Shown one piece after another: positions 3,001 to 30,987 of a stretch of DNA of 32,000 bases (its first letter is position 1; each line of letters opens with the position of its first letter). The translations under genes and the position numbers were made by a program. Below the pieces are notes generated by a model, which was not told the DNA's origin, made no database searches, and worked only from the letters and a program-made list of their open reading frames with translations. The stretch lies in NCBI GenBank assembly GCA_023818895.1, contig JAMWCX010000002.1, positions 330,001 to 362,000 on the forward strand. Direction: 5' to 3'. Source of the DNA: Candidatus Omnitrophota bacterium (GTDB lineage Bacteria > Omnitrophota > Gorgyraeia > 2-01-FULL-45-10).

Positions 3001-3580
3001 GTCCTCTATATCGTATCCTATGGTATTAGACGCGATGTATCCTGCAATACCCTGTATAGTTGAAAGATAGTCAGGGTCGTTCATGTTGGCTTCGAGGACC
3101 TGATCGGCAACAGCTACGCCATAGATTAGCTCAAAATCCGCCCGCAGCGTCGGATACGCAACATCATCAAGCGCGTTGTGAACAGCCATGGCGCCGTTAA
3201 GGCCGGCGATGTATGTTGCAAGATTATAGCCTGTCCCGTTAACTACGCCTGCCAGCCAGCCGCGATATGCGGGGTTATTAACAGGGTTCTGGTTTATAGG
3301 AGCGTAGTTCGAAATAGCCGCGACTATACTTTGAAGCGAATTATCAATTATAGCCTGGTGAAGATCTGCGGATGCACCGAGCTCGTAAATAAAATCATCG
3401 ACAGTATAATAATCGGGCTTCGTATAGTCATCGTGTTCGGATATGTATCCTGCTATTCCGACAAGTATCGACATGTAGTCATTATTACTCAGCACCTGAT
3501 TTGAAACTGCGGTACCGTAAAGAATCTGGAAATCACTCTGAAGGCCATGCGCGATGATCTCTTCGTGTATCTCTATCGCA
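1..3580 (-). repeat. In-frame tandem coding repeat, unit 192-198 nt (64-66 aa), about 18 units in window, continuing past the left edge
   Basis: Recurring unit L(R/Q)ADF..(V/I)Y(N/G)....D..P.VT...YR..LSG(I/V)ASY(V/I)L.N....T..D.L.A.P(I/V)MAD(I/L)HAALLAD. Anchors such as gccatgatggg recur at about 641, 1025, 1417, 2589, 2784. A 60-nt stretch at 2541-2600 recurs at 2736-2795 with one mismatch (offset 195). The 28-nt ccgggtcctggtcggcgaccgctatgcc occurs at 1521-1548 and 1716-1743 (offset 195). Confidence 0.9.
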
Positions 3581-5976
3581 AGGACCGAGCCTGAACCGCC
3601 AGCGAGTATACCGGGCAGCGCAAGATCTCCGGCCGCGGTTATCGTGATATTGGTTATCCTGCCAGAGCCATCTGTAGTGACTGTAATATAGCCGTCCGTA
3701 ACCCATTCATTGCGAAGATTATCGTTGGTAAAAAGCAAGATCGCCGCGTTGACTGCCGCTTCAGCCCCTATTCCGTAACCATTGAACTTACCGACAAGGT
3801 AATCGAGCACGGCAAAGGCGGTCTGACCATAAGTGGTAACGCTGATAGCATCCGCGCCTATAGCGGCATCCCGAAGACCGGTAGCAAACATCTTCTGTAA
3901 ATAGACATAAATTCTGTCCTGGATAGCAAATCCACTTGCCGAATACGTATGGTTATCGATAACGAGGTTCGGCATAAGAGCCTCAAACATGGTACCTTCC
4001 CATGATGGTATATAGTGGAAGGTGTCGCTTCCTATCGTATAGTCGTAAACGCCGTTAGACGGAATCTGGGCCTGCCATGTCCAGTCTTCCGGATAAGCGG
4101 TGACCATCCTGTCCCATAACGCCGCGGGGATGGTGCTGCCTGTCTTACCTATGGCAATAAGAATTGTCGGGCGTATTTCGGTATATATATTTCCATAATA
4201 GGATGTTGTAAGAGTGCTTGTATCCGGATCAGCACCTGTGGCAAGAAGTCCCGCTGTGGTATTATATAAACTGTTAAAATTCATAGCATTGAAAAGCGCG
4301 TCAGCGTTTGTCCTGATAGCGCCTCCATATGCCTGCCGAACGACAAGCAACGCCGAGGCAAGCCAGCCATTATCGACTGTAGATATGAACTTTTCGCTTG
4401 CGGTAGAGGCAGAGGGCGGGTTGGTTGTAAAACTGTAATAATTATGGAAAAGACCGTTCCACTTGTCGAGAGTAGCCAGTGTTGCCAGGCAGTTAGTAAT
4501 ACGAGTTTGGGCGGTAGCACTGTCGATCAGGTTAAGCTCATCCGCCGCTACCACGCTCATTAGATACAGAGCTATGTCTGTTATAGAGGTATAATTGGCA
4601 ACGCTTCCTGCCGCGGTGCGCCTGTCCGGCGGAAGCCAATAGGTGCCCGCGTTAGTCGTGTCAGCGAAATAATTCCATGTGCTCTGCGCGTAACCCAAAA
4701 GCGTCGCTTTTTGAAGATCTGTAAGAGCCGAGGTATCAAGCTGCGCGCCGGTAGGGTCGGTCAGTATACCAGAATAAGCCTTGTTAAGTCTTCCTCTTGA
4801 AATAATAAGTGGGTTACTACCCATGAAATAGTCCTGTATGCATCCATTATTAAGGGCATTTGCAATGGACACGAGGATACATCCCTGCGACAGAGTAAGA
4901 TACACTTGAGCCACGTCATTATTAGTCGCGTTGACGGAATCGAGAAAACCATAAGTGCCGGTCATGCCGGATATGCCGCTTAAGTCGCCAATATTAGCCA
5001 TCGCCTCGGCCGGCGCAACGTCAAGAGCCAGGAAACTCGCATATGGTGTTACAACGCCTGATTCATTCAGGATCCACGCGCCGTGGCTCATACCGAGCGG
5101 CGCGTAATAATCACGATATGTCGAATCATCGGAAGGATCAGTACACGAGGACATTCCCCATACACTCAGGCCCTGCGAAGAGGTATTTATATTGATGACA
5201 CCTTCGGCCACAAGAGCTTCCCTTAGACTCGCATCGCCAAAAAGCTGAAGGGCTATGCGCTCAGCCGCCCACTGATCCAAACTTGCGGCCATCATCGCCT
5301 GTATGAGATTATACATATCGCCGGCTGCGACGTGGCCGTATTCTGTAAGGTTAACGTCCGTTATCACGCTACCGGATAAGGTGGTTGTGATAAAACGGGC
5401 ATCGAGCCATAGCTGGCGAAAAGCGGGATCAGTGAAGATAAAGTCTGCATATGCGTCATCAGTCCCATTATTGGGTATTCCGGCCGCCGCAAGTTCATCG
5501 GCGAATGAGACCATATTCGGTATGGCTATATTGCCGTTTGCGGTTATCGTTATCTGTGTAGGGTCATTTGTGTCATTTGACGGCTGTATAGAGAGGTATC
5601 CGGCGCTCGCCCAGCGTATGCGTTTCGCGTCGTCATAGTATAAGTATTCGCCTATGTAGCTTCCCATTCCTATGGCGCTCAGCTGATTTGCTAGCCTTAC
5701 AAGCATGTCATAGACCGCGACGCGGCCGTATGCGGTAAGGGTCCATGTCAAAGCGCCGTCAGATACTATGAAACCGGCGTTCTGCCAGTTTGTCCTGGCT
5801 CCGGCATCGTTAAAAATCGCCCATGCCCAATAATCGGCAAGATATGTCGGGTCTCCAGCAGGAATACCCGCCGCAATAAGCTCTTGCCTAAAAGACTCTT
5901 GGTCAGCAAGCGCCGCATGGGTTGTAACCATTACAAACAACATCACAAGACACACCAAACCGACTATTTTTTTCAT
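1..5976 (-). CDS. Giant secreted protein, 3' end beyond window (at least 1,992 aa): signal peptide, duplicated small N-terminal modules, (alpha/alpha)6 glycoside-hydrolase-like region, then tandem 64-66-aa repeats
   Basis: Not in the supplied ORF track. Reading plus-strand triplets in register with position 1, none of tta/cta/tca (minus-strand stops) occurs in 1..5976. ATG at 5976-5974, GGAGGG at 5985-5990. N-terminus MKKIVGLVCLVMLFVMVTTHAALADQESF looks like a signal peptide. Motif blocks: PLGMSHGAWILNESGVVTPY (5041-5100); TYGFLDSVN..YLTLSQGCILVSIA (4861-4980); YTSITDIALYLMSVVAADELNLI (4501-4620); TVDNGWLASALLVV (4321-4380); SWEGTMFEALMPNLV (3961-4020). All track ORFs in 241..5638 lie in other frames. 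Confidence 0.85.
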   Translation of the reverse strand, partial: MKKIVGLVCLVMLFVMVTTHAALADQESFRQELIAAGIPAGDPTYLADYWAWAIFNDAGARTNWQNAGFIVSDGALTWTLTAYGRVAVYDMLVRLANQLSAIGMGSYIGEYLYYDDAKRIRWASAGYLSIQPSNDTNDPTQITITANGNIAIPNMVSFADELAAAGIPNNGTDDAYADFIFTDPAFRQLWLDARFITTTLSGSVITDVNLTEYGHVAAGDMYNLIQAMMAASLDQWAAERIALQLFGDASLREALVAEGVININTSSQGLSVWGMSSCTDPSDDSTYRDYYAPLGMSHGAWILNESGVVTPYASFLALDVAPAEAMANIGDLSGISGMTGTYGFLDSVNATNNDVAQVYLTLSQGCILVSIANALNNGCIQDYFMGSNPLIISRGRLNKAYSGILTDPTGAQLDTSALTDLQKATLLGYAQSTWNYFADTTNAGTYWLPPDRRTAAGSVANYTSITDIALYLMSVVAADELNLIDSATAQTRITNCLATLATLDKWNGLFHNYYSFTTNPPSASTASEKFISTVDNGWLASALLVVRQAYGGAIRTNADALFNAMNFNSLYNTTAGLLATGADPDTSTLTTSYYGNIYTEIRPTILIAIGKTGSTIPAALWDRMVTAYPEDWTWQAQIPSNGVYDYTIGSDTFHYIPSWEGTMFEALMPNLVIDNHTYSASGFAIQDRIYVYLQKMFATGLRDAAIGADAISVTTYGQTAFAVLDYLVGKFNGYGIGAEAAVNAAILLFTNDNLRNEWVTDGYITVTTDGSGRITNITITAAGDLALPGILAGGSGSVLAIEIHEEIIAHGLQSDFQILYGTAVSNQVLSNNDYMSILVGIAGYISEHDDYTKPDYYTVDDFIYELGASADLHQAIIDNSLQSIVAAISNYAPINQNPVNNPAYRGWLAGVVNGTGYNLATYIAGLNGAMAVHNALDDVAYPTLRADFELIYGVAVADQVLEANMNDPDYLSTIQGIAGYIASNTIGYDIEDFKVELVTMADLHEGLTSNAALRADFESMYNVTYVADPETSDDYRFTLSGIASYIASHPPMTAAAFLNSVPIMADIHAALLADPALRADFETINNVTADTTPNVTTESYRYALAGMASYVLDNPPMTYTDLLDALPIMADIHAALLADPALRADFNIVYNTTADTTPNVTSTGYRNVLAGIASYALANSLDFNDILDAVPYIADIHAELLASATLRADFNAIYGVDPDTTPNVTSDNYRNALSGVASYILGSAGTYTVSDFVSALPIMADLDEAISADINVQSAFETIYGIEVANQDPVTNADYRNILSGVASYIIDNPPYSVADFTAELPVMENVHEALQADALLQADFETIYGIAPADQDPITNDAYRFNLSGIASFILNNAGYTVAIFMDALELMADLHEALAADPTGVGEDFASVYGIAVADQDPVTNADYRNILSGVANYILANPPMTVNDFLASLPIIDDLHAAISADPDLQADFETIYGIAVADQDPVNNPDYANALSGIARYIVTTPGYTVLRFTQALPIMADLDAAITASADIQNDFEVIYGIAPANQDPVTNENYRNLLSGTADYILDNAGYTVGDFVGALTPMADIHAALLADASLRADFNVVYNVTADTTPSVTTESYRYALSGIASYVLDNPPMTINDILSAIPIMADIHQALVADAGLRADFNTVYNTIADSGANVTTEAYRYALSGIASYVLDEGLTANDILNAIPVMADLHAALLADADLQADFTVVYNVVADTTANVTTESYRYALAGMAAYILDNGLTTSDLLDALPIMADLHAALLADAALRVDFEVIYSVTADTTANITGENYRYALSGIASYILANAGTTIDDILGAIPYMQDIHAALLADPGLRADFNIAYNTTADTTATVTSEDYRTVLSGIGAYVLANPGITVTDILNGVPYIVDIHQALLADASLRADFNTVYGVTPDTTASVQSDNYRAILSGVASYIVANSGSYGVSDFTGALSHMADIHEALVASADLQADFL

Positions 5977-6046: not shown

Positions 6047-6094
6047 ATAAATTAAAAGCCTGGTCACCTACTTTTCAGCTTCGGTAACCAGGCT
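6047..6094 (-). terminator. Intrinsic terminator-like hairpin inside the leader of the giant gene
   Basis: Minus strand: AGCCTGGTTACC (6094-6083), 14-nt loop, GGTGACCAGGCT (6068-6057). This gives a 12-bp stem with one G-U pair, followed by TTTAATTTAT. It lies about 80 nt upstream of the ATG at 5976 and about 250 nt downstream of the preceding gene's stop. Confidence 0.6.
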
Positions 6095-6164
6095 GTCTAA
6101 AACTATATTAGACCCTTGGCTTTGCCGTGAACCAGAACTCACTTTGCTCGTTAGGTTCACGATC
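6078..6164 (-). promoter_or_regulatory. Candidate c-di-GMP-I (GEMM-I)-like riboswitch aptamer in the 5' leader of the giant gene
   Basis: Minus strand: GAUCGUGAACCUAACGAGCAAAGUGAGUUCUGGUUCACGGCAAAGCCAAGGGUCUAAUAUAGUUUUAGACAGCCUGGUUACCGAAGC. From memory, the Vc2 GEMM-I blocks are GGCAAAC, a 16-nt hairpin, ACGCAAAGCC, a long hairpin, then AGC..GGUUACCGA. Here the blocks are GCAAAG, a 16-nt hairpin GUGAG[UUCUGG]UUCAC, ACGGCAAAGCC (one extra G), a hairpin CCAAGGGUCUAA/UUAGACAGCCUGG, then GGUUACCGAAG. The 3' part (6081-6100) overlaps the terminator 5' arm. No covariance-model search was run. Confidence 0.4.
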
Positions 6165-6251: not shown

Positions 6252-6279
6252 AGTTTACTATAAAAAATTATTTTGTCAA
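6252..6279 (-). promoter_or_regulatory. Sigma70-like promoter for the giant gene leader
   Basis: Minus strand: TTGACA (6279-6274), 16-nt spacer, TAAACT (6257-6252), in an AT-rich intergenic region. Confidence 0.4.
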
Positions 6280-6347: not shown

Positions 6348-7463
6348 TTATTTTTCCAGCCAGATCTCAGGATGTTTATGATAGGAAATAACAAATGCTT
6401 CGACGACTTTTGGATCAAACTGAGTCGAGGATGCCTCCCTTATCCTGTCAAAAGCCGCTTCCTTTGAAAGCCCTTTCTGATAAGGCCTGTCTGTGGTAAG
6501 GGCGTCGAATGTATCGGCGACTGCTATTATCCTCCCTTCAAGGGAGATGGCATTTCCTTTGAGATGATGAGGGTAACCATTCCCGTCAAAGCGCTCATGG
6601 TGTTCCAGCACCCCCCTTATTATCTTATGAGAATCGTCTATCGACTCTATTATCCTTGCGCCTATACCTGGATGCATCTTTATCTGCCTGCGCTCATAAC
6701 CCAAGAGCTTTGCCGGTTTCATAAGAATACTTTCCTTAACGCCTATCTTCCCTATATCGTGCAGTATGCTCGCCAACCTCAGATTCTCAAGGGTCTCCTC
6801 ATCAAGATTGAGTTCCTGACCTATGGCAACAGCATATTTCATGACACGCTCAGAATGGCCGCTCGTGTACGCGTCTTTGGCATCTATAGCCCTGGCAAGC
6901 GATGTCACAGTGCTTATAAAGAGGTTCTTAAGGCGATGGTACAACTTAGCGTTGAGGAGCGCTATGGCTATATTATTTGAAAGCGCCTCCAATAGTTCTT
7001 TATCTTCTTCCGTGAAGAGGTGCCCCGGCCTTTTACGGTTGCTCACTATAAGTATTCCTATAATCTTACCTTCCACCTCGAGAGGGACGGCAAGAAAAGA
7101 GTGTATAGGCAGTTCTATATCAGCAAATGGCAGCTTCTTCCCTTTGAAAAGAAAGTTATCACGTATATCATTAACTATAAGCGGCTCTTTGCTTTTTATG
7201 ACATTCTCGTTTATAATCTCCCAGCTTCCCAGGAGATTTATATTGTCGAGCTCATCCGCGCTAAAACCTTTCGCCTTTGTCAGCATCAGCTTCCTGATGG
7301 TTTCATCCATCAGGAATAGCGAGGCATGGTCCGCGCCAAGCGCTTTTGACGACTGGTCGAGGACAATCTCGCTTACCTTTTCGAGATCAAGGGACGAGCT
7401 TATCTCACGACTTACCTGCAGGAGTATTTTCGCGGCTTCGTATTTGCGTGTGTTTTCCGTCAT
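6348..7463 (-). CDS. GAF domain + HD-GYP domain protein (predicted c-di-GMP phosphodiesterase)
   Basis: C-terminal motifs HSERV, ILHDIGKIGV, HHERFDGNGYP and VADTFDALTTDRPY define HD-GYP. The N-terminal ~170 aa is GAF-like. The ATG overlaps the upstream stop (ATGA at 7460-7463). Confidence 0.88.
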   Translation of the reverse strand: MTENTRKYEAAKILLQVSREISSSLDLEKVSEIVLDQSSKALGADHASLFLMDETIRKLMLTKAKGFSADELDNINLLGSWEIINENVIKSKEPLIVNDIRDNFLFKGKKLPFADIELPIHSFLAVPLEVEGKIIGILIVSNRKRPGHLFTEEDKELLEALSNNIAIALLNAKLYHRLKNLFISTVTSLARAIDAKDAYTSGHSERVMKYAVAIGQELNLDEETLENLRLASILHDIGKIGVKESILMKPAKLLGYERRQIKMHPGIGARIIESIDDSHKIIRGVLEHHERFDGNGYPHHLKGNAISLEGRIIAVADTFDALTTDRPYQKGLSKEAAFDRIREASSTQFDPKVVEAFVISYHKHPEIWLEK

Positions 7464-9373
7464 AAAACCTTTACCACTATTATCGTCATGTCATCGTGCT
7501 GTTGGGACTTTGGCTCGAACCGGCGCACATCGCGTTCTATCGTCTCCAGGAGCTTTCTCGCGGAAAGACCTCTGTTCTTAAGAGCAACTGCCTGTAGGCG
7601 CTCTTTACCGTACATATCGGAGTGACGATTCATCGCCTCGGTGATGCCATCTGTATAGTATATGAAGATATCGCCCTTTTCAAAGGCGACGCTGCTCGCG
7701 GAATACTCGCCTTCCATAAGGCCTAGCGGTGATCCTTCCTCGACATCGAGGAAACGGCTGCTTCCATCCCCCGCGATGTAAAGAACAGGAAGGTGTCCTC
7801 CATTACCATATACCATAGTTTTGGCTCTCACGTCAAATATAGAATAGTAGACTGTAACAAACAGGTTCGAAGTTGATTCTCTTATAAGTTTTGAATTGAG
7901 GCTCGACAATACTTCCTGCGGATTTTTCCCGGGAAGCGCAAAAGACCGAAAATCACCGACGACCATTGCCATGAAAAGGGCTGCGGGAACGCCTTTGCCG
8001 GAAACGTCGCCTATCATTATGCCGAATCGATCCTCGCCGAAAGACGTAAAGTCATATAGATCCCCTCCGACCTGGCGGGCCGTAAACATGGCCGCCGCTA
8101 CATCCATTCCCTCAATTGAAGGCATTACCTTAGGCAAGAAACTTTCTTGTATTTTCTTGGCTATCTGAAGCTCGCTCTCCATTAGAAGTCTTTTCTTCCA
8201 CTCCCTCACGTACTTGTATAGGGTAAGCGCTATGTGAAGAATCACCCCTACTACCAGCGGATAGATAAGGTCTATCCATAAGCCTGTCAGATTGAAAAGC
8301 AATATGCCGCTCGTGATAAAAATAGTCATTATGCCAACTAGCATGAAAAAACCTTTAAGAGGTCTTGTCTTAAGGACAAGGACCGACATGAGCGAAGATA
8401 GCACAATGAGTATCATAAGGTTCGTGCCACGTGATGCCCTCGCTATGAAATTTCTTTTTACAATGGAATTGAAGACATCGGCGTGCATGCCCATGGCGGG
8501 ATAAAGTGCGTCAAATGGATTAGGATGCAGATCAACCGTCCCCACAGCGGTCAGGCCGATTATGCAAACCTTGCCCCTTAACTTGCCCAAGTCGATATTT
8601 GGCACCTCCCCTGTCACTTTGGCTAGATAGGATTGCAATACATCCACAAACGAATAGTGGCGGTATGAACGGCCCCATGGAGCGGAGAAATTCACTATTA
8701 TATTGGAGTGTTCGTCAAGCGGAATCTTCACGCCACCAAGATCCACGTAACTTCCTAGCACAAACTTGACATCCTTCTGCGATATGCCCAGATGATCGCA
8801 GGCGAAAAGAAGCGACAGATACGGTTGAAGAAGATACCCCTCGTACTTAATATAAGCCGGCACGCGACGGAATTTTCCGTCTACATCGGGCACGACATTG
8901 ATATGGCCAACCCCCTTAGATACGCTGTTTAAAACCTCAAGGTTTCTGGCGGCTATGCCAGATGCGTAAGGCACCTTGCGTCTGCCGGGCTCGATATCAA
9001 ATACTACCGGGAAATAAACGTTGCCGGCCTTCTTTACGGCATCAACGAACTCCGCGTCGCTCTTCATCGGCTCGCTGAAGAAAATATCGAATACTATCGC
9101 TTTAGCCCCGGCCTCGGATAGCGCTTTTACAAGCAGCGCATGATAGCTCCTGTCAAATGGGAAGCGGCCTATCTTTTCGACGGTATCGTCGCTTACCTCG
9201 ATCATAACAACTTTGTCAGTGGTTGGTATCTGCGGGCGCGCTCTAAATCTGAGATCTAGCGTTTCGAGTTCATAGCTGTCGAGGATGTGGAAGTAGGAGC
9301 CGGCCATGATGGCCAGGCACCCAACCAGACCTGCCAACGCGACAAGTATCTTGTTAAGGGCTTTTATCTTCAT
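7460..9373 (-). CDS. CHASE2 sensor domain + PP2C/SpoIIE-type serine phosphatase (RsbU-like)
   Basis: N-terminal TM segment, then a periplasmic region with the CHASE2 signature IGRFPFDRSYHALLVKALSEAGAKAIVFDIFFSEP, then three TM helices. The cytoplasmic SpoIIE/PP2C part carries IAKKIQESFLP, GGDLYDF, GDVSGKGVPAALFMA and TDGITEA. The start codon directly abuts the upstream gene's stop (TAG-ATG at 9376-9371). Confidence 0.88.
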   Translation of the reverse strand: MKIKALNKILVALAGLVGCLAIMAGSYFHILDSYELETLDLRFRARPQIPTTDKVVMIEVSDDTVEKIGRFPFDRSYHALLVKALSEAGAKAIVFDIFFSEPMKSDAEFVDAVKKAGNVYFPVVFDIEPGRRKVPYASGIAARNLEVLNSVSKGVGHINVVPDVDGKFRRVPAYIKYEGYLLQPYLSLLFACDHLGISQKDVKFVLGSYVDLGGVKIPLDEHSNIIVNFSAPWGRSYRHYSFVDVLQSYLAKVTGEVPNIDLGKLRGKVCIIGLTAVGTVDLHPNPFDALYPAMGMHADVFNSIVKRNFIARASRGTNLMILIVLSSLMSVLVLKTRPLKGFFMLVGIMTIFITSGILLFNLTGLWIDLIYPLVVGVILHIALTLYKYVREWKKRLLMESELQIAKKIQESFLPKVMPSIEGMDVAAAMFTARQVGGDLYDFTSFGEDRFGIMIGDVSGKGVPAALFMAMVVGDFRSFALPGKNPQEVLSSLNSKLIRESTSNLFVTVYYSIFDVRAKTMVYGNGGHLPVLYIAGDGSSRFLDVEEGSPLGLMEGEYSASSVAFEKGDIFIYYTDGITEAMNRHSDMYGKERLQAVALKNRGLSARKLLETIERDVRRFEPKSQQHDDMTIIVVKVL

Positions 9374-10432
9374 CTAAAAAAAGTAGCTGAGGCCGCCGGA
9401 ATACATAGTGTCAACGTACCTTTCTAAAGGTTCGTTGGTATGGTTTTCGGAATGTGAATAATTCACGAAGGCGGAAAGATTATCTGTCATGTCGTATATA
9501 AGCGAACCTGTGACGATATAAAGGTTGTCCCTTTGCAGCGCTTCACTGTCGCTCACCTGGCGCTCATAATAGTTACGGCGCTGATAATAAAAACCGGCGG
9601 TGCCAAAAAGCCTCTTTGAAAGAATCGCGGTCAAGGCGCACCCTGTCCTATTGGCCCAGTAATCGTAGTAATCCATGTATTGGTAGTTCGATTCATTGAC
9701 GTAGTAGTCGTTAAGAACACGCAGCTTGACTTTCTTGCCTATGTATATGCCCAGCTCATACCTGCAGGTATTTCTGAGATCGGCCCTGAGTTCAGAGCTC
9801 AGCGTATAATTACTTAAGCGTACCTTTCTGTCGAAGTAGCTTCGATATTCGAGGCGATACATCGCCCGTTGATATAGCCATTTTGTTACCGTGTGCTTTA
9901 AGGATACGACAAAGGAATTGCCTAAGTAATTTCCTTCCCTGTTATGAGGATACCACATGGACTCGAAAACATAGCCCGCGCTAAAGTCCAAATCCTTGGC
10001 GATGTTATGGTCTAAATACACATCGGCTACGCCGTCAAATATGTTGACGTCTGTTACACGAAAATAGTTAACGTTTAGCGCGTTCACACCAAACCTGACA
10101 TCGGTCTTGCCAAGGCTTTCTGCAACAAGCGGATACTTGAAATGGAGATCGAACATCTCCTGTGTATAATTATCTGCTTTGTGAGTGGAGTCCAGAAGGG
10201 GGTTGGAATCTACTCCTTGGGTAACACTTGTGGTTATCTCCACTTTAAGAAGCTCTTTGGAAGGTTTTTTGGCCGGCGGGGAAACCGGCACTTTGGGAGC
10301 AGCGTATAAGTATTTTTTTATGTCCTGGTCTTCTACGGTCTTGACATCGGCACGAGAATGAATAGCTGTAAAAGTTGTAAAGAAAATCACTAAAAGCGTT
10401 GTACAAAATATCTTGCAGGATCCTTCCTCCAT
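9374..10432 (-). CDS. Predicted outer-membrane beta-barrel protein, family not recognised
   Basis: Hydrophobic N-terminal signal-like segment. Y/N/G-rich alternating pattern throughout. C-terminus ...YSGGLSYFF ends in an aromatic residue, typical of OMP beta-barrels. Confidence 0.6.
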   Translation of the reverse strand: MEEGSCKIFCTTLLVIFFTTFTAIHSRADVKTVEDQDIKKYLYAAPKVPVSPPAKKPSKELLKVEITTSVTQGVDSNPLLDSTHKADNYTQEMFDLHFKYPLVAESLGKTDVRFGVNALNVNYFRVTDVNIFDGVADVYLDHNIAKDLDFSAGYVFESMWYPHNREGNYLGNSFVVSLKHTVTKWLYQRAMYRLEYRSYFDRKVRLSNYTLSSELRADLRNTCRYELGIYIGKKVKLRVLNDYYVNESNYQYMDYYDYWANRTGCALTAILSKRLFGTAGFYYQRRNYYERQVSDSEALQRDNLYIVTGSLIYDMTDNLSAFVNYSHSENHTNEPLERYVDTMYSGGLSYFF

Positions 10433-10479
10433 CCTCTTTTGCCTTTTATACCCTTCTTAAAAACTTTTTCGAGATAAAA

Positions 10480-11514
10480 TCATTCTCCTTTATTAATTGT
10501 ACCGCCTGAAGTATCACCTGAGATGCCGCTTGCGTCTGAAACCGATGTGGTTTTCGATTCTATCGGCTCTCTCGCCTCTTCTTTCGCGGCTATCTGCGAT
10601 ATATCACGGGTCTCCTGTATATCCTGCTTCTTGGCTTCAAGCCTTTCGATCTGCGTCTCTTCTTTCGCTATGCGGTCCAACCTTGAATACGACCTATCTA
10701 TCGTGGATTCCGCTTGTTCTATAATAGATTGTGTCTTCTCGATGGTCCTTCCCGCTCTTTCCTCTATAGCGCCAGCGGTCTTTTCCGCTCTTTCTTCAGC
10801 CGCGCTTTCAGTCGGGGTTTCAATTCTTTTTTCTGTCGCCTTTTCCGGAGTCGAAGTGGCGGCTTCTTTCGCTATTTCCGGCGAGCGGCCTATAACCTCT
10901 TGCCTGAAACCGTTCCATCTGTCGATATCAGCGCGCGAAATCTGTTCGAGTCTCTCCGGCCTTTCGAACTTGTCAACCACAGCGCGGAATCCTTCGCTTA
11001 CTGTAAGCTCTCCTTCCATTACGCTGCCATCCCTATTGATGCCCTTGACATAAATAGCGTTCTCGTAAGAACTAAATATAGCCGTTTCTCCATCAGTCTT
11101 GCTGCCCCACCCTGTACCGCGAGCGCCGCTTATTCCGGCAGGCGTTCTTATCTCGAAGCTCGAGCCTTTAGGGATATTCCTCATCAAGGCAAGCACTTCT
11201 CCGTTCAGAAGTTCAATACTGCATGGCGTCTTCCCATGCACTATAACCACGTCAGAATTCTCCGCTATGCCAATGACGTTAGTCTTATCGGCCAGAAACA
11301 CTATATCAACGGCCTCATTCGCGGCTGTCCTTATCCTGTCCCCGTTCGAAACAGCCATCGCTGGCGCGCAGCTTATCCAGCTGCCTGAATCTCTTTTCAT
11401 TATTTTGGGGCTACCTCTTACGGACATGATTTCAGGCGAGGCGTCTTGCGCGAACGTAAGCGTGTAGGACACGAAGGTCAACACCGCTGTTATAAAAATT
11501 ATCTTAAGTCGCAT
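10480..11514 (-). CDS. Secreted FecR-domain protein with E/K/R/T-rich low-complexity C-terminal tail
   Basis: Signal peptide MRLKIIFITAVLTFVSYTLTFAQD. FecR-like core (..W..C.....VSNGDRIRTAANEAVDIVF...ELLNGEVLAL.....FEIRTPAGISGARGTGW). C-terminal ~140 aa is charged and probably coiled or disordered (EKRIETPTESAAEERAEKTAGAIEERAGRTIEKTQ...). Confidence 0.75.
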   Translation of the reverse strand: MRLKIIFITAVLTFVSYTLTFAQDASPEIMSVRGSPKIMKRDSGSWISCAPAMAVSNGDRIRTAANEAVDIVFLADKTNVIGIAENSDVVIVHGKTPCSIELLNGEVLALMRNIPKGSSFEIRTPAGISGARGTGWGSKTDGETAIFSSYENAIYVKGINRDGSVMEGELTVSEGFRAVVDKFERPERLEQISRADIDRWNGFRQEVIGRSPEIAKEAATSTPEKATEKRIETPTESAAEERAEKTAGAIEERAGRTIEKTQSIIEQAESTIDRSYSRLDRIAKEETQIERLEAKKQDIQETRDISQIAAKEEAREPIESKTTSVSDASGISGDTSGGTINKGE

Positions 11515-11565
11515 AATCTCTCCTTTTTTAGCCTACCTAAAGTGTTCCTAATTTTCCACCATTAC

Positions 11566-12189
11566 TTAATCTTTTCCCTTTATCAAAAGCTTCCAGGGAT
11601 GCGCTTTAAGGTCCTGACTGAAATCCTTGAAATTAATAGCGGTCTGCTCTATATTCATCATTATGCTGTCCAGGCGCGGCCTGTTATCTGTAACCGCTCC
11701 GTTGATATTTTCGGCGAGGTTCTTTATCTGGCCAAGCGTTTTATCCAGGGCATCCGCTATAGCATCGGCCTTCTTCCAGAATTTTCTGACCTCGACTGGG
11801 TCCTCGCTTGCCACCGTACCACCATTTTTAATAAACGGTTTATCCGCAGACCCAGGCGTAAGCCCAACATAAGCGTCGCCTATCATGCCAGAGGTGGCTA
11901 TGAACGCTATCGCGTCCTCATGGACTTTGAAGGCCGGTTTTACAGCAAGCTCCAGCATTATCTTTGTTTCGGGTTCGTACTTGAAACCTATCTTGGTGAC
12001 ACGGCCAACCTCTATGCCGGCTAACTTCACGATGGCATCCTCCTTGATTCCGTCGGCGTGATTGAAATAGGTATATATCTTGTAAGGGGCGCCGGTAGTG
12101 CCGGTGGTCTTAATATAAAAAATCATGGTTGCAAGTATCGCGGCAACGACTACTATGCCGGTCTTGACCTCGTTAGTAAGGATCTTCAT
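11566..12189 (-). CDS. mlaD: MCE/MlaD-family substrate-binding protein of an Mla-like ABC transporter
   Basis: N-terminal TM anchor followed by an MCE domain (YKIYTYFNHADGIKEDAIVKLAGIEVGRVTKI). Sits directly downstream of the mlaF/mlaE homologues. Confidence 0.85.
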   Translation of the reverse strand: MKILTNEVKTGIVVVAAILATMIFYIKTTGTTGAPYKIYTYFNHADGIKEDAIVKLAGIEVGRVTKIGFKYEPETKIMLELAVKPAFKVHEDAIAFIATSGMIGDAYVGLTPGSADKPFIKNGGTVASEDPVEVRKFWKKADAIADALDKTLGQIKNLAENINGAVTDNRPRLDSIMMNIEQTAINFKDFSQDLKAHPWKLLIKGKD

Positions 12190-12236
12190 GCGTTATCTCC
12201 TTTCCCTCACTGAATTATTTTTATCAAAACACAAAT

Positions 12237-13049
12237 TCACGCTACAAGCGTCTCCAGATAATCATCCTTCTGCTGGAAAAATTTTATAGGGCCATCGGGT
12301 GATCCATTTATGAACTGTTGAACCATCTCATTCTTGGAATGCCTTATTTCATCTGGCGTACCAACCTCAAGAACCCTGCCTTCGTAAAGCATAGCCACTC
12401 TGTCAGCTATAGAGAACACGCTTTTCATATCATGCGTTACCACAACGGATGTTATGTTAAGCTTTTTGGAAAGATCGAGTATCAGCTTATCTATGACACC
12501 GGCGACGATAGGGTCGAGACCGGCTGTAGGCTCATCATAGAAGACTATCTCGGGATCCATCGCTATGGCGCGCGCAAGTCCGACTCTTTTTTTCATACCG
12601 CCAGAAAGCTGGCTCGGCATCAGGTCCTCAAATCCTCTTAAACCAACGAGCTCCAGCTTCATTTTAACTACTATGTCCCGCACGCTTTTATCAAGTTTTG
12701 TGTGCTCTTTAAGCCCCAGCGCGACATTCTCGCCGACTGTCATGGAATCGAAAAGGGCGGACGACTGAAAAGACATACCTATTTTGCGCCTTAAGTGGTC
12801 CATCTCATCATCGTTAAGGGTGCTAAGATCCTTGCCCAAAAGATATATCTTTCCGGAATCGGGTTTGAGCGATCCGATGATGTGACGCAGGAAAGTCGAT
12901 TTTCCGCATCCGGAGCCTCCCATAATGACAAAGGTTTCGCCTTTGTAGATCTCAAGGCTGATACCATTCAATACCGTCCTGCCGCCGAATTTCTTAACTA
13001 CGTTGTCTGCTTTTATCACTACCTCTTTTTCGGATTCTTTCGGATTCAT
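12237..13049 (-). CDS. mlaF: ABC transporter ATP-binding protein, MlaF-like
   Basis: Walker A GGSGCGKST, signature LSGGMKKRVGLARAIA, Walker B IVFYDEPTAGLD, H-loop VVVTHD. Confidence 0.9.
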   Translation of the reverse strand: MNPKESEKEVVIKADNVVKKFGGRTVLNGISLEIYKGETFVIMGGSGCGKSTFLRHIIGSLKPDSGKIYLLGKDLSTLNDDEMDHLRRKIGMSFQSSALFDSMTVGENVALGLKEHTKLDKSVRDIVVKMKLELVGLRGFEDLMPSQLSGGMKKRVGLARAIAMDPEIVFYDEPTAGLDPIVAGVIDKLILDLSKKLNITSVVVTHDMKSVFSIADRVAMLYEGRVLEVGTPDEIRHSKNEMVQQFINGSPDGPIKFFQQKDDYLETLVA

Positions 13050-13050
13050 A

Positions 13051-13893
13051 TCATTTCCCTGCGAAATAAAATACGCCTGTTAGTATACAATCAAAAAGTA
13101 TTATAAGTATAAAGCTTGTCACAACCGAAAGCGTTGTGGACTTACCCACTCCCTCCGCGCCGCCTTTTGTGTTCAAGCCCATGTAACAGCCGATCATAGA
13201 TATGATAAGGGCAAAGGTCCCGCTCTTGACTAGCCCTGTCCACACATCTTTCCATGCCATATATTTGAACGAAAAAGTAATGTAGCGGTAGGGATCGAGA
13301 TCGAGACTGAAAACACCTACGAGGAATCCTCCGAATATTCCAACTAAATCCGCCAGTATCGTAAGACAGGGGAGCATTACAAGAAGCGCAAGAAAGCGCG
13401 GTATGACAAGAAATCTGATGGGGTTCAGCGCCATTGTCTCCAGCGCCTCTATCTGCTCGCTTACCTTCATCGTGCCAAGTTCGGCGGCTATGGCGGCGCC
13501 GACGCGGCCTGTGACGACAAGAGCTGTGAGAACGGGCCCCAGCTCTCTGGCCAAGCTTATCGCGACCATAGGGGCAACATATATATTAGCCCCGAATCTC
13601 GAAAGCTGGTATGCCGATTGCATCGCTATGACGATGCCGGTAAAGAAGGCAACAAACATCGCTATGACGAGCGATCCCACGCCGGCAAATACCATCTGAT
13701 GAAATATGCTGTCGCTTTTTACAAATTTATTTTTCAGCGGGCCGAATATCAGCCACCATATAGTGTCAAAAAGAAGACCTAAGACTTCGACGGTTCCCTT
13801 CCATGCGCCCAATACTACGCTTCCTATCTTGGCAAAAAAGTTTACTATCACCGTTACCCCCATCAATGCCTTATGCGAAAGTGGAGATGGCAT
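13051..13893 (-). CDS. mlaE: ABC transporter permease, MlaE-like
   Basis: Multi-TM protein with the MlaE/TtgB-type block GAAIAAELGTMKVSEQIEALETMALNPIRFLVIPRFLA. The alternative ATG at 13863 would remove the 23-nt overlap with the STAS gene. Confidence 0.88.
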   Translation of the reverse strand: MPSPLSHKALMGVTVIVNFFAKIGSVVLGAWKGTVEVLGLLFDTIWWLIFGPLKNKFVKSDSIFHQMVFAGVGSLVIAMFVAFFTGIVIAMQSAYQLSRFGANIYVAPMVAISLARELGPVLTALVVTGRVGAAIAAELGTMKVSEQIEALETMALNPIRFLVIPRFLALLVMLPCLTILADLVGIFGGFLVGVFSLDLDPYRYITFSFKYMAWKDVWTGLVKSGTFALIISMIGCYMGLNTKGGAEGVGKSTTLSVVTSFILIILFDCILTGVFYFAGK

Positions 13894-14206
13894 CCTGCTC
13901 GTCGGCCATTATTTCGAATAGCTTCTCCAACTTGGTTATCTCGAAAAGGCTCTTTATTTTGGAAGACAGGTTCGTGAGCCTAAGGCGGCCGCCGTAAGAA
14001 CGCATATTCTTGAGTATCTCCACGAGCGTCGCAAGCCCTGATGAATCAACATAAGTCACTTTGGAAAGATTAACAACTATCTTAGGCGTCTTGGATGATA
14101 TCAGCTTATCAAACACCTTCTTTATAGACGGGCTCGAATTTATATCGATCTCGCCCTCCACGTAGCATACCGTTAATCCGTTTTTGTTCTCGATCTTCAC
14201 CGCCAT
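13871..14206 (-). CDS. STAS-domain protein (anti-sigma-factor antagonist type, SpoIIAA/RsbV-like)
   Basis: 111 aa. Carries the conserved phospho-acceptor context VTYVDSSGLATLV. AAGGAG RBS upstream of the ATG at 14206. Confidence 0.85.
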   Translation of the reverse strand: MAVKIENKNGLTVCYVEGEIDINSSPSIKKVFDKLISSKTPKIVVNLSKVTYVDSSGLATLVEILKNMRSYGGRLRLTNLSSKIKSLFEITKLEKLFEIMADEQDAISTFA

Positions 14207-14227
14207 AGCTATGTCTCCTTTTCCCCT

Positions 14228-14692
14228 TTATTTAAGATTCTTCACCATCGTTATCCTTCTGCCGCCAGCCGTGTATTCGACCTTGTCCATAAGCTTCTTT
14301 ATAAGATAGACTCCCCTGCCGGAGTTCTTAAATATATGCGCTTCACTTGTGGGGTCCACAAGCTTCGACTGGTCAAACCCTTTACCTTCATCTTCTATCT
14401 CGATGTGGAGGTTGTCATCCTCGACCCAGGAGGCGATCTTTACCAAACGGCGCCTGTCGCAATTATTGCCGTGGACGATCGCATTCCTAACGGCCTCTTC
14501 TATGCACAGCTTTATATCAAAGATTTTGCCTTCATCGAGCACATAATCCACTATTTTTGACAACACAGCATTCGACACCTTTCTTATAAACCGTGTCTCG
14601 CTCGGGATCTTTAGCTCAGTCCTTCTGCTTGCCTCTTTATGGTTCTTTAAAAATCCCAATGGCCCTAATCTTATCATATCGAGCGTCCACAA
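14228..14692 (-). CDS. RsbW/SpoIIAB-like serine protein kinase (HATPase_c anti-sigma-factor type)
   Basis: N-box EEAVRNAIVHGN, G1 EIEDEGKGFD, G2 NSGRGVYLIKKLMD. The track start at 14692 is a TTG inside accA, so the start is uncertain. The in-frame ATG is at 14677. Confidence 0.8.
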   Translation of the reverse strand: MWTLDMIRLGPLGFLKNHKEASRRTELKIPSETRFIRKVSNAVLSKIVDYVLDEGKIFDIKLCIEEAVRNAIVHGNNCDRRRLVKIASWVEDDNLHIEIEDEGKGFDQSKLVDPTSEAHIFKNSGRGVYLIKKLMDKVEYTAGGRRITMVKNLK

Positions 14693-15599
14693 GTTTGTCT
14701 TTGGAGATATTTTTTAGACCTGCGAGATCCTTTTTTATAGTCTTTTTTATATTCTCGGCCGCCTCATGGGGATCCCGGTGGGCTCCACCGAGCGGCTCTT
14801 TGATTATACCATCAATGATCTTCATTTCAAGAAGATCCTTGGCGGTAAGCTTTAGAGCGGCGGCCGCTTCAGGAGATTTAGAACGCTCCTTCCAAAGTAT
14901 CGCGGCGCATCCCTCCGGAGATATTACCGAATAATACGCGTTCTCAAGAACGTACACCCTGTCTCCCACCCCTATACCAAGAGCGCCGCCGGAGCCGCCT
15001 TCACCTATCACAAAAACTATTATCGGCACCCTCAAATGCGCCATCTCTCTAAGATTATAGGCTATCGCCTCAGCCTGTCCGCGCTCCTCCGCGCCGATAC
15101 CTGGATACGCGCCCGGCGTGTCGATGAAGGTAACTATGGGCAGGTCAAACTTCTCGGCCATGTACATTACCCTCATGGCCTTTCTATATCCTTCCGGATT
15201 GGCACAGCCGAAATTCCTCTCCAGGTTCTCCTTGGTATCCTTGCCCTTTTGATGACCTATTACGACTATCTTCTCCCCGTTCAGCTTTGCCAGCCCGCAT
15301 ACCATGGCCTTGTCATCAGAAAAATGCCTGTCGCCGTGTATCTCGATGAAATCGGTCATCATCATCTCGATATAATCCAGCGTGTAAGGCCTTTTGGGAT
15401 GACGAGCTATCTGGACCCTTTGCCAGGGGGTGAGGTTATCGTAGACATCCTTTTTTATCTGGGCCAGCTTCTCTTCGAGATGTCTTATCTCTCCGGAGAT
15501 ATCAATATCCTTGTGGGATGTAAAACCCTTGAGTTCCTCTATCTTACGCTCAAGGTCTATTATAGGCTTTTCGAATTCGAGTCCAGGAATAGCCGCCAT
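14637..15599 (-). CDS. accA: Acetyl-CoA carboxylase carboxyltransferase alpha subunit
   Basis: Full-length AccA-like sequence: LTPWQRVQIARHPKRPYTLDYI, FIDTPGAYPGIGAEERGQAEAIA, GEGGSGGALGIGVGD. Confidence 0.93.
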   Translation of the reverse strand: MAAIPGLEFEKPIIDLERKIEELKGFTSHKDIDISGEIRHLEEKLAQIKKDVYDNLTPWQRVQIARHPKRPYTLDYIEMMMTDFIEIHGDRHFSDDKAMVCGLAKLNGEKIVVIGHQKGKDTKENLERNFGCANPEGYRKAMRVMYMAEKFDLPIVTFIDTPGAYPGIGAEERGQAEAIAYNLREMAHLRVPIIVFVIGEGGSGGALGIGVGDRVYVLENAYYSVISPEGCAAILWKERSKSPEAAAALKLTAKDLLEMKIIDGIIKEPLGGAHRDPHEAAENIKKTIKKDLAGLKNISKDKLVDARYDKIRAIGIFKEP

Positions 15600-17010: not shown

Positions 17011-17127
17011 ATTTTAGGTTTTTGAATTAGTTATCACGGTTGATATTGATTATGATGGGATAATATTATAATATATAGGTGAGATGTTTTCAACGATATT
17101 ATTACCACGATTTATAGGAGGGAGAGC

Positions 17128-17667
17128 GTGAATAAGTTAGCCTGTCTTTTCGTGTTAGGATTATTGACAATTATTTCTTGCGGTTTTTCAATCATCTGCG
17201 GCGCTGCCGAGCTTGAACAAATGTCCAACAAGCAGCCTATAAAGGTATATCTGGCTTCTTTTTCAAATGAATCTGGCGAGAAAGATCTAAAGGTCGATGA
17301 ATTGAAGCAAGAAGTGGAGAAGGCTTTCGCGAACAGAAAATCTGTCCGTTTCGAAATCGTAAAATCACCTGCCGAAAGCGATGTGCAGGTTTTCGGTATA
17401 ATAAAGAAATTCCAATATCTGACCAAAGATCCGGTCAGGCCTGCCATAAGCGTCGCCCTTATGGCGCTTGATGCCGCAATCACAGAAAATTTCGTGGAAA
17501 TGGATGTTCAATTTACGATAATAAACACGAAGACGGGCGCTTTGATATGGAAGGATAACGTGGTTAGGTTTCTAAAAAGATCGATGACGCGGGCACAGAG
17601 TATTCCTTTGATCTACGATAAAATCGCACGCGCGTTCGTGTCGAAATCGTTCGGCAAGGGAAGGTAG
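17128..17667 (+). CDS. Predicted lipoprotein of unknown function; the only plus-strand gene I accept
   Basis: GTG start with GGAGGG RBS. Signal peptide with lipobox LTIISC. Preferred over the antisense 17112..17483 ORF, which has no signal or RBS. Confidence 0.6.
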   Translation: MNKLACLFVLGLLTIISCGFSIICGAAELEQMSNKQPIKVYLASFSNESGEKDLKVDELKQEVEKAFANRKSVRFEIVKSPAESDVQVFGIIKKFQYLTKDPVRPAISVALMALDAAITENFVEMDVQFTIINTKTGALIWKDNVVRFLKRSMTRAQSIPLIYDKIARAFVSKSFGKGR

Positions 17668-30014: not shown

Positions 30015-30987
30015 ACGCCGTATCCGGCTCCTTCTTTAGAAGCCTCTGCAGAATACTATCGAATGTCTTCTGGGCAAGGTCGAGCCTGTAAAGATAATTA
30101 GGTTGGCTGGAATCAGCGCCTATCTTGGTATCGATAAAATAAAGGGAATTATTGCTGTGGTCATAATAGACGTTTCCGGGCTTTGAGTTAAACTTATAAA
30201 GCGTAACCTTGTTATTCATCACGCTGGTTCCTATCTCCACCACTTCTATCTCCTTCTCGGTTATAACAATTATGTAGTTGGAACCAGGATACCAGAACGC
30301 GTTGATTATAGGATCGGATGTCGTAAGAACCTCCTCGATCTTCACCTTCCCTTCTGGGCGGCTGAAGGTCTTCTCGGGGTAAAGATATATGATACAGACC
30401 GTTGAGGAGGTATAATAAAGTATTCTCCTACCGTCAGAAGAAAATTTCCTGCCTATGATTCCTGAAGGCCAATTCGAATATGATGAAAGCCGCTTTAAAC
30501 TGGTCCCGTCCATATTTGACCTAAATAAGCCTGATCTTTTCATATAGTATATATAACCGTTGTCGGAGACGAAGAAATCCGATATCCCATTTTCGTTTAT
30601 CACTCTCATCTCCTGCTTTATCGGGAATAGCACAATTCGATCGGCCCTCGTCACCATGTTGGGCCGTATGACAATTTCTTTCTCCCAAGGATAAAAGCCG
30701 TCTCGCCTAACCTCCACCTTGTATATACCGGGTTTAAGCTCCTCTATCTGGGCGGGAGTCACGTCAGGAAGCCTTCTTCCACTCAAATATATAGTGGCGC
30801 CGGCAGGAACACTCTCCACATATAATATACCCGTTTTATATAACCGCAGGTTCCGGTAGTCTATCTGGTAGCCAAGGGCATAGGAAAGTATTATGGGAAG
30901 CAGTATAAAGAATAATGCAACGCATAGATAAAAAGCTATGGCCCTCATTATCCTGTCGATTTTTCTCATTTCATCACCGCCCGCCAT
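30001..30987 (-). CDS. Membrane-anchored PEGA-domain protein with a beta-propeller-like C-terminal region
   Basis: TM anchor IAFYLCVALFFILLPIILSYAL. PEGA-type block VPAGATIYLSGRRLPDVTPAQIEELKPGIYKVEVRRDGFYPWEKEIVI. TolB/WD40-like strands (SDNGYIYYM, FSSDGRRILYY). The alternative ATG at 30969 has a better RBS. Confidence 0.7.
   Translation of the reverse strand: MAGGDEMRKIDRIMRAIAFYLCVALFFILLPIILSYALGYQIDYRNLRLYKTGILYVESVPAGATIYLSGRRLPDVTPAQIEELKPGIYKVEVRRDGFYPWEKEIVIRPNMVTRADRIVLFPIKQEMRVINENGISDFFVSDNGYIYYMKRSGLFRSNMDGTSLKRLSSYSNWPSGIIGRKFSSDGRRILYYTSSTVCIIYLYPEKTFSRPEGKVKIEEVLTTSDPIINAFWYPGSNYIIVITEKEIEVVEIGTSVMNNKVTLYKFNSKPGNVYYDHSNNSLYFIDTKIGADSSQPNYLYRLDLAQKTFDSILQRLLKKEPDTAYEKR

Follow-up and report, generated by a model that had tools for sequence, protein, structure and literature searches.

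A kinase–STAS–PP2C phospho-switch encoded with an MlaFED-type transporter in Omnitrophota, and its possible action on lipid transport

What does a complete partner-switching set act on when no sigma factor is encoded beside it? This question is raised by a cluster of nine minus-strand genes at positions 6348-14692 of a stretch of 32,000 nucleotides (nt) from a Candidatus Omnitrophota bacterium; this whole stretch is referred to here as the window. The same locus, identical, is also found on contig JAMWDH010000006.1 of assembly GCA_023818765.1. The nine genes code for a serine kinase, a STAS protein, the transporter components MlaE, MlaF and MlaD, a FecR-domain protein, an outer-membrane β-barrel, a CHASE2-PP2C phosphatase and a GAF-HD-GYP protein (Table 1). 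A sequence-only reading of the window had proposed a circuit that runs from an envelope signal through the phosphorylation state of the STAS protein to Mla activity and/or the level of cyclic di-GMP (c-di-GMP), and on to the expression of a surface protein. The comparison with related loci indicates that the switch is very likely tied in its function to the MlaFED transporter. On the sequence evidence, the transporter is probably an MlaFED-type lipid transporter with a cytoplasmic STAS subunit that would be under reversible serine phosphorylation.

All nine genes are present where the sequence-only reading placed them, eight having Pfam matches and the ninth being identified by its fold, and the complete set of kinase, STAS protein and PP2C phosphatase is indeed encoded in the cluster, with domains and catalytic motifs intact. 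The kinase has the N, G1 and G2 boxes of GHKL kinases at residues 65-75, 101-106 and 125-130, respectively, and when compared with the NCBIfam models it matches RsbW (5e-17) and SpoIIAB (2e-16), both under the equivalog cut-offs. In the STAS protein the motif D54-S55-S56-G57 is found, in which the phosphorylatable Ser55, at the start of helix 2, is aligned with the DSSG serine of SpoIIAA; 11 sequences, drawn from two phyla, all have this serine, and the longer motif Y-x-DSSG-x-AT-x-V-E is invariant in both phyla. The phosphatase consists of a transmembrane helix (residues 9-27), a periplasmic CHASE2 domain, three transmembrane helices (residues 316-385) and a cytoplasmic PP2C domain of the SpoIIE family, of which the metal-binding aspartates Asp438, Asp456, Asp575 and Asp627/628 are invariant in 15 homologues. 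The same three protein families, with the same motifs, make up the SpoIIE-SpoIIAA-SpoIIAB and RsbU-RsbV-RsbW modules of Bacillus. The window cluster differs from these modules in that it has no sigma gene, that the conserved partner genes encode an ATP-binding cassette (ABC) lipid transporter, and that its phosphatase is built as a membrane sensor with a CHASE2 domain (in Nitrospirota, as a GAF protein).

From the kinase to the HD-GYP gene the intergenic distances are 21, -23, 1, 47, 51, 47, 0 and -4 nt. These genes belong to a co-directional run that spans from 6348 to beyond 24000, and in a run of this length co-direction and small gaps alone are unremarkable, so the case for a functional unit rests on conservation elsewhere. 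A genome scan anchored on the phosphatase provided six Omnitrophota loci (L002-L006 and L018, some of which are labelled Planctomycetia in the records), in which the gene order is DUF212, L,D-transpeptidase, accA, kinase, STAS, MlaE, MlaF, MlaD, (FecR, barrel) and CHASE2-PP2C. The same order is seen in four further contigs (L086, L087, L168 and L169), with phosphatase identity falling to 39%, and no Omnitrophota locus with enough sequence departs from it, at phosphatase identities as low as 38-44%. Conservation of the gene order in relatives was the test that the sequence-only reading had set for itself, and the order kinase-STAS-MlaEFD-(FecR-barrel)-CHASE2-PP2C is retained across divergent Omnitrophota. 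This is also in agreement with a metagenome scan, in which an alignment of STAS proteins was used to collect 80 loci, 41-88% identical to the STAS protein of the window. In this clade MlaE is the next gene downstream of STAS in 58 of the 60 loci with enough sequence, the kinase is the previous gene in 65/67, and a PP2C gene is present in 21 of the 29 loci with enough flank.

Outside Omnitrophota, about 70 unrelated PP2C loci were fetched in the same phosphatase-anchored scan, and one of these, on a Nitrospirae contig (L068), has GAF-PP2C, kinase, STAS and MlaE as consecutive genes. The STAS protein of L068 has several hundred relatives, the best 120 of which have 69-100% identity; where source names are given among these 120, they are Nitrospiraceae, Nitrospirota or Nitrospirae. 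In two long Nitrospirota contigs the order is HD-GYP, M48 peptidase, GAF-PP2C, kinase, STAS, MlaE, MlaF, MlaD and hisS. The Nitrospirota loci L068, L082, L084 and L085 combine GAF-PP2C, kinase and STAS with MlaEFD between other flanks (M48 peptidase, hisS), with no accA. A third gene order, STAS-MlaEFD-GAF-PP2C-kinase, is found in the metagenomic locus L158, and the metagenomic loci L160 and L166 have the order PP2C-kinase-STAS-MlaE. In a crude control with 13 other PP2C loci from diverse phyla, having a STAS gene within 10 kb, MlaE is present only in the Nitrospirota locus. Conservation of the association of kinase, STAS, PP2C and Mla genes therefore extends to at least two phyla, with three gene orders. 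Another candidate for an out-group, L074 (Calditrichaceae), was rejected, having an orphan MCE gene by a REC-PP2C gene among phosphotransferase-system genes and, by Pfam, no STAS, kinase or MlaE gene. As to the Nitrospirota flanks, the GAF-PP2C gene is preceded in L082 (3483-5935) and L084 (2430-5860) by genes for an HD-GYP protein, the N-terminal half of which is uncharacterised, and for an M48 (HtpX-like) membrane peptidase, and in L084 and L085 a small FGE-sulfatase-like open reading frame (ORF) is located between MlaE and MlaF.

These comparisons bear on the possibility that the genes have stayed together as a piece of a housekeeping super-operon in a phylum with compact genomes, in the absence of any functional coupling. 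Such inherited gene order would agree with the synteny of the flanking DUF212, L,D-transpeptidase, accA, folE and mnmE genes across Omnitrophota and with the co-direction of the whole region. However, some Omnitrophota loci that have no accA upstream, for example L155, still hold kinase-STAS-MlaEFD (the STAS clusters of such loci, L155 included, carry Omnitrophota names where names exist), and Nitrospirota and other lineages hold the module in other contexts and orders. The occurrence of the same four functions with a different sensor, with different neighbours and with no accA argues against inherited gene order, and this explanation is highly improbable.

How the switch could act on the transporter is suggested by the MlaFEDB systems of Escherichia coli, Acinetobacter baumannii and Pseudomonas aeruginosa. 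The window encodes MlaE, MlaF and MlaD together, as in the MlaFED core, and its MlaF can be aligned over the full length with MlaF from these three species, including the C-terminal 'handshake' extension of about 25 residues, and with the LSGGM signature at residues 148-152. All three of these MlaF proteins operate with MlaB. Residues Y264, L268 and V269 of the window MlaF are aligned with Y261, L265 and L266 of E. coli MlaF, and Nitrospirota MlaF has Tyr, Leu and Leu at these three docking positions. In E. coli the terminal helix of MlaF fits into a groove to which the STAS subunit contributes, the roles of the residues having been described, and the association of MlaF with MlaE requires MlaB (PMC7367683). 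Thr52 of E. coli MlaB is at the centre of the interface with MlaF, and the phosphomimetic variant T52E weakens binding; phosphorylation of MlaB was left as an open question by the authors, and no kinase is known (PMC7367683). Ser55 of the window STAS protein is at the position equivalent to Thr52. MlaF is the likely partner of the STAS protein, since it aligns over its full length with MlaB-dependent MlaF proteins and its docking residues are conserved.

The window thus shares with MlaFEDB the MlaE, MlaF and MlaD components, the LSGGM signature, the handshake extension with its Tyr/Leu/Leu(Val) residues, a single-domain STAS gene in the operon and a Ser/Thr at the Thr52 position. It differs in that its STAS protein is of the full-length SpoIIAA/RsbV type and is encoded upstream of mlaE, in that the cluster encodes a kinase and a PP2C phosphatase, none being known for MlaB (PMC7367683), and in that mlaC and mlaA are absent from the cluster. 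The STAS protein was considered as an MlaB orthologue, and this assignment was rejected, as the protein is below the cut-off of the MlaB model NF033618, is closer to SpoIIAA, and keeps a strand and a helix that MlaB does not have. It passes the anti-sigma-factor antagonist model TIGR00377 with 87 bits against a cut-off of 53, and TM1442, SpoIIAA and RsbV are its closest matches among solved structures. In its AlphaFold2 (AF2) model (predicted local distance difference test, pLDDT, 87) the fifth strand (residues 98-100) and the last helix (residues 103-110) are present, whereas the MlaB fold is truncated, being without the fifth strand and the C-terminal helix (PMC7367683). As judged from these scores and the modelled fold, the STAS protein is of the canonical anti-sigma-antagonist type and fills the genomic role of MlaB. 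It has been tabulated in this role before: the published Dataset 1 of Mla components scores KJJ84113 of Ca. Omnitrophus magneticus as 'MlaB_Cluster', beside MlaE, MlaF and MlaD, and the paper behind this listing makes no mention of the kinase or the phosphatase. In two independent metagenomic contigs (L161, 2666-3415; L146, 88-846) the kinase and the STAS protein are in one ORF, of 249 and 252 residues, respectively, directly upstream of MlaE; these ORFs would be a natural kinase-STAS fusion. Some genomes have a second STAS paralogue by the module (L005, 11949-12461, minus strand; L141, 8-157). In L005, the source chromosome of which is 1.14 Mb, the second STAS gene is on the opposite strand, just past the phosphatase gene, and recalls the two RsbV proteins of Chlamydia.

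In the mechanism proposed here, the unphosphorylated STAS protein, like MlaB, would bind MlaF at its helical subdomain, and the STAS-bound MlaF dimer would be stabilised on MlaE, allowing ATPase activity and transport. Phosphorylation of Ser55, at the centre of the interface, by the kinase would release the STAS protein and switch the transporter off. On sensing an envelope cue through its periplasmic domain, the CHASE2-PP2C phosphatase would take the phosphate off, assisted in most lineages by the secreted FecR protein and the 14-stranded barrel. In this way the state of the envelope would set the lipid-transport activity post-translationally. This specific STAS-MlaF mechanism is judged to be a little more probable than improbable. 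The general proposition, that Mla transport is gated post-translationally by a dedicated kinase/phosphatase pair acting on a STAS subunit, in response to an envelope signal (CHASE2) or a cytoplasmic signal (GAF, in Nitrospirota), may be right or wrong with about equal probability.

Several observations weigh against this mechanism. The MlaB model NF033618 gives the STAS protein 33.5 bits, far under its cut-off of 90, and the AF2 model of the STAS protein superimposes better on SpoIIAA (template-modelling score 0.88) than on E. coli MlaB (0.61), so that binding of the STAS protein to MlaF cannot be assumed from homology alone. In locus L165 (337-3038) the kinase, STAS and CHASE2-PP2C genes are consecutive, without intervening Mla genes, and the switch is therefore able to occur with no transporter alongside. 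The support for the mechanism is all genomic and comparative.

It is also possible that the set works as a true partner switch, in which the kinase holds MlaF or another Mla component, and the dephosphorylated STAS protein captures the kinase and frees MlaF, never joining the transporter. The synteny supports such sequestration and STAS-MlaF binding equally well, the STAS protein and the kinase are canonical SpoIIAA/SpoIIAB-like proteins, and a close kinase-STAS pairing is a better match to the fused ORFs of L161 and L146 than is a STAS protein that must leave for MlaF. A GHKL kinase that binds an ABC ATPase is, however, without precedent, and MlaF's C-terminal extension is conserved together with its three hydrophobic docking residues, and sequestration by the kinase appears unlikely.

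The sequence-only reading had stated that no sigma factor is encoded in the window, which is borne out by the Pfam annotation; no sigma factor is found among the Pfam-annotated neighbours of the related loci either, the remaining genomes not having been searched. Of the features of a partner-switching module, the STAS protein with its DSSG serine, the adjacent GHKL kinase with its N, G1 and G2 boxes and the PP2C phosphatase with its metal-binding aspartates are therefore all present, while a cognate sigma gene is absent from the window and from the annotated neighbourhoods. In an ordinary anti-sigma system the sigma factor would be encoded elsewhere, or would be the primary sigma factor, as proposed for RsbW of Chlamydia, and the Mla genes would be neighbours or part of the regulon. 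RsbW and SpoIIAB are the best families of the kinase, the STAS protein passes the anti-sigma-antagonist model, and L165 has no Mla genes; Omnitrophota moreover share a superphylum with Chlamydiae, whose Rsb module is reported to have no adjacent sigma gene (PMC4552016). Such a system is nevertheless difficult to reconcile with the adjacency of MlaEFD, which persists through three gene orders, two phyla and different flanks, with MlaE being adjacent in 58/60 loci of the STAS clade, unlike in other STAS/PP2C loci, and with the lack of a sigma gene in any annotated neighbourhood. It is quite unlikely to be the correct explanation.

Partner-switching-like systems that do not have a dedicated alternative sigma factor as their output are known, namely the SypE-SypA system of Vibrio fischeri, the BtrU-BtrV-BtrW system of Bordetella, the HenR module of Anabaena, which acts on a glycosyltransferase (PMC8256260, PMC13555669), and the Rsb network of Chlamydia (PMC4552016). 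In all four, as in the window, it is the STAS protein that appears to be the output. None of these systems is linked to Mla/MCE proteins or to an ABC transporter, whereas the candidate target of the window system is indicated by the gene neighbourhood and by the MlaF-MlaB precedent.

On the sensor side, the CHASE2 domain is located between the N-terminal transmembrane helix and the cluster of transmembrane helices of the phosphatase, and a secreted FecR protein is encoded alongside, as in known FecR/CHASE2 pairs. The FecR protein has a signal-like segment at residues 3-21 and a long charged C-terminal tail; a LysM domain is not matched in it by Pfam. It is the probable periplasmic partner of the CHASE2 sensor. 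The assignment of the neighbouring gene as an outer-membrane β-barrel proved to be correct: the AF2 model, calculated with an alignment of 26 sequences (pLDDT 79.6), has a signal helix and 14 strands, and the top matches of a Foldseek search of the Protein Data Bank (PDB) are the 14-stranded OmpG and CymA, with FadL also being found. The last residue of the protein is a phenylalanine. A PDB sequence search found nothing even at E = 10, and only the fold search identified the barrel. Its homologues are found in Omnitrophota only, and a few of these match PF10082. The FecR and barrel genes are both present in 21 loci and both absent from nine, and neither is found alone in any locus; they behave as one accessory unit. 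The FecR(-LysM) and CHASE2 pair (COG4254/COG4252) is already known from Burkholderia, where it belongs to a 'BiofilmReg' operon, and from Pseudomonas, with a histidine-kinase output, a related PBP-HK pair being present in P. aeruginosa PAO1 (PMC5192318). The window likewise encodes a secreted FecR protein near a CHASE2 membrane sensor, and differs in that the output domain is PP2C rather than a histidine kinase, in that the FecR protein is without LysM, and in that the barrel gene separates the two.

The last gene of the cluster encodes the GAF-HD-GYP protein. It has the canonical HD and HHExxDGxGYP motifs (HDIGK at residues 235-239 and HHERFDGNGYP at residues 288-298), and the first 4 nt of its gene overlap with the end of the phosphatase gene. 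The gene directly after the phosphatase was counted in 24 related loci having a full-length CHASE2-PP2C gene and at least 1.2 kb of downstream sequence. It is an HD-GYP gene in six of these, and also in the window and in L018, which are outside the 24. The related loci with this arrangement (L002, L003, L018, L086, L087, L168 and L169) are of one sub-lineage. A GGDEF-EAL gene has this position in 3/24 loci (L006, 11869-13623; L148, 14509-16230; L151, 7730-9469), which are from a divergent Omnitrophota sub-lineage, and a housekeeping phosphoglycerate mutase gene has it in another six; in the rest of the 24 loci other or unidentified genes, or none, follow. As judged from the domain matches, the HD-GYP slot is taken in another sub-lineage by a non-homologous type of c-di-GMP phosphodiesterase. 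Two unrelated types of phosphodiesterase in one slot, together with the HD-GYP gene that is two genes upstream of the phosphatase in Nitrospirota, suggest that the c-di-GMP link is real but optional.

As the sequence-only reading stated, the cluster ends at the HD-GYP gene, upstream of a c-di-GMP riboswitch and of the gene of a giant secreted protein; the RF01051 match is above the gathering score and the giant ORF starts at 5976. The riboswitch match covers the full model length and is about 100 nt upstream of the ATG at this position. The giant protein has an N-terminal Glycoamylase/DUF3131 region and, after it, about 20 divergent repeats, each of some 70 residues (ADxxLRADFxxxY...YRxxLSGIASYxL). 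These repeats are visible at the protein level only, Tandem Repeats Finder having found none in the DNA of the gene. Because of the promoter-like site ahead of the riboswitch, the giant gene seems to form a transcription unit of its own. In L168 and L169, too, the HD-GYP gene is followed by a homologous giant gene, and the 342-nt spacer of L168 has a sub-threshold aptamer of the c-di-GMP-I clan (30.1 bits, E = 3e-5, in a permissive 471-nt search). When twelve related loci were searched for the riboswitch at the gathering threshold, only transfer RNAs (tRNAs) were found. A riboswitch with a giant gene after the HD-GYP gene is present only in the window and in one related lineage (L168/L169), and elsewhere tRNA or housekeeping genes follow. 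The riboswitch is a neighbour and not a conserved part of the module. An HD-GYP protein and a c-di-GMP-I riboswitch are both ordinary, and only their lineage-specific position by a phospho-switch is notable.

These data also bear on the possibility that c-di-GMP is the main output, the STAS protein or the phosphatase controlling the adjacent HD-GYP or EAL enzyme and the Mla genes being co-expressed envelope machinery. This would be analogous to STAS proteins that control second-messenger enzymes, and it could explain the 4-nt overlap, the HD-GYP gene after the phosphatase in seven related loci, the GGDEF-EAL gene at the same position in L006, L148 and L151, the HD-GYP gene two genes upstream of PP2C in Nitrospirota, and the riboswitch that follows in the window and, sub-threshold, in L168. 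Most related loci, however, have no c-di-GMP gene at this position, six having phosphoglycerate mutase and others unrelated genes, whereas MlaEFD is nearly always present, and c-di-GMP as the main output is improbable. With Mla transport as the main output, the GAF-HD-GYP protein, the gene of which would be translationally coupled to that of the phosphatase in the window sub-lineage, would probably add a c-di-GMP output, and this output could here reach the adjacent riboswitch-controlled giant surface protein. In the proposed circuit from envelope signal to surface protein, the sensor-STAS-Mla core is thus supported by the conserved gene order, and the extension to c-di-GMP and the surface protein is lineage-specific.

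At its other end the cluster is not free-standing. For the full kinase, the start codons TTG at 14692, ATG at 14677 and TTG at 14659 are available, and the choice between them is uncertain. The first strand of the kinase (ELKIPSE) needs a start upstream of residue 26, and the only starts there are within the accA 3' end. In the window the two ORFs share 14637-14692, and overlaps of 20-56 nt are seen across several lineages, L168 included; in L086, L087 and the P0020 contig the gene callers place 20-44 nt of the kinase gene inside accA. With the kinase start inside accA, the cluster continues a long minus-strand run. The description of one tight co-directional cluster thus holds for the orientation and the gaps of the nine genes, but not for its upstream limit. 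The promoter-like site inside accA, a pattern match, may serve the kinase-STAS-Mla genes as an internal promoter. A block of DUF212, LysM-YkuD L,D-transpeptidase and accA genes precedes the module in most Omnitrophota, and together with the module this block could form a super-operon for envelope biogenesis, in which accA and the kinase gene would be translationally coupled.

Table 1. Features of the window that are discussed in the text, in the order of transcription of the minus strand.
Feature	Position	Strand	Evidence
accA (acetyl-CoA carboxylase carboxyltransferase alpha), upstream context	14637-15599	-	Pfam ACCA 7e-153
Promoter-like site inside accA, TTGAAA-16-TATAAT with TG extension	14803-14830	-	Consensus scan, 11/12 matches
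RsbW/SpoIIAB-like GHKL serine kinase	14228-14692	-	HATPase_c_2 7e-26
Single-domain STAS protein, SpoIIAA/RsbV type	13871-14206	-	STAS 3e-21
MlaE permease	13051-13893	-	PF02405 6e-81; TIGR00056 250 bits, above cut-off
MlaF ABC ATPase	12237-13049	-	ABC_tran 4e-35
MlaD, short form, MCE domain, one N-terminal transmembrane helix (8-26)	11566-12189	-	PF02470 2e-16
Secreted FecR-domain protein	10480-11514	-	PF04773 9e-9
Outer-membrane β-barrel	9374-10432	-	No Pfam match; AF2 and Foldseek
CHASE2-PP2C membrane phosphatase	7460-9373	-	CHASE2 2e-48; SpoIIE 7e-50
GAF-HD-GYP protein, predicted c-di-GMP phosphodiesterase	6348-7463	-	HD_5 4e-39 and GAF
Promoter-like site ahead of riboswitch, TTGACA-16-TAAACT	6252-6279	-	Consensus scan and direct reading
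c-di-GMP-I riboswitch aptamer	6080-6158	-	RF01051, 40.6 bits (gathering score 35)
Giant secreted protein, >1992 residues, extends past the window edge	1-5976	-	Translation; Pfam PF10091, PF11329

Two further observations concern the surroundings of the cluster. The sole break in co-direction is at 17112-17667, where a plus-strand ORF of 179 residues (17128-17667), which is called by NCBI at the identical locus, overlaps a minus-strand ORF of 123 residues (17112-17483); neither of these has a Pfam match. Near the far edge of the window, at 30974-31980 on the minus strand, two adjacent ORFs of 105 and 230 residues overlap by 4 nt, and both match MFS_1. This pair, which adjoins the genes of a PEGA-domain protein (30001-30987) and of a family-2 glycosyltransferase (28485-30014), could be a split or frameshifted transporter gene.

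The sequence-only reading had regarded the combination of genes as undescribed. Among open-access papers and bioRxiv preprints, none was found on the combination as a whole, nor any in which a kinase or phosphatase of the Rsb type is connected with Mla or with its STAS subunit; the FecR-CHASE2 pairing, however, was known, and an Omnitrophica STAS protein had been tabulated as MlaB in the cluster. The proposed system can be described as an Mla transporter with a phospho-regulated SpoIIAA-type STAS protein or, equally, as a partner-switching module with a transporter as output. If the proposal is correct, it would be the first partner-switching system with an ABC transporter as its output, and it would be the counterpart of the phospho-regulation at MlaB Thr52 that has been proposed, and never demonstrated, in E. 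coli. The cluster would supply in cis the kinase and the phosphatase that are missing from the MlaB picture, in a form that is testable with five or six small recombinant proteins. Partner switching would then extend from transcription to the direct control of a membrane transporter, the CHASE2 sensor and its FecR-type partner would have a first candidate output, and the arrangement would suggest how Omnitrophota couple the state of the envelope to lipid homeostasis.

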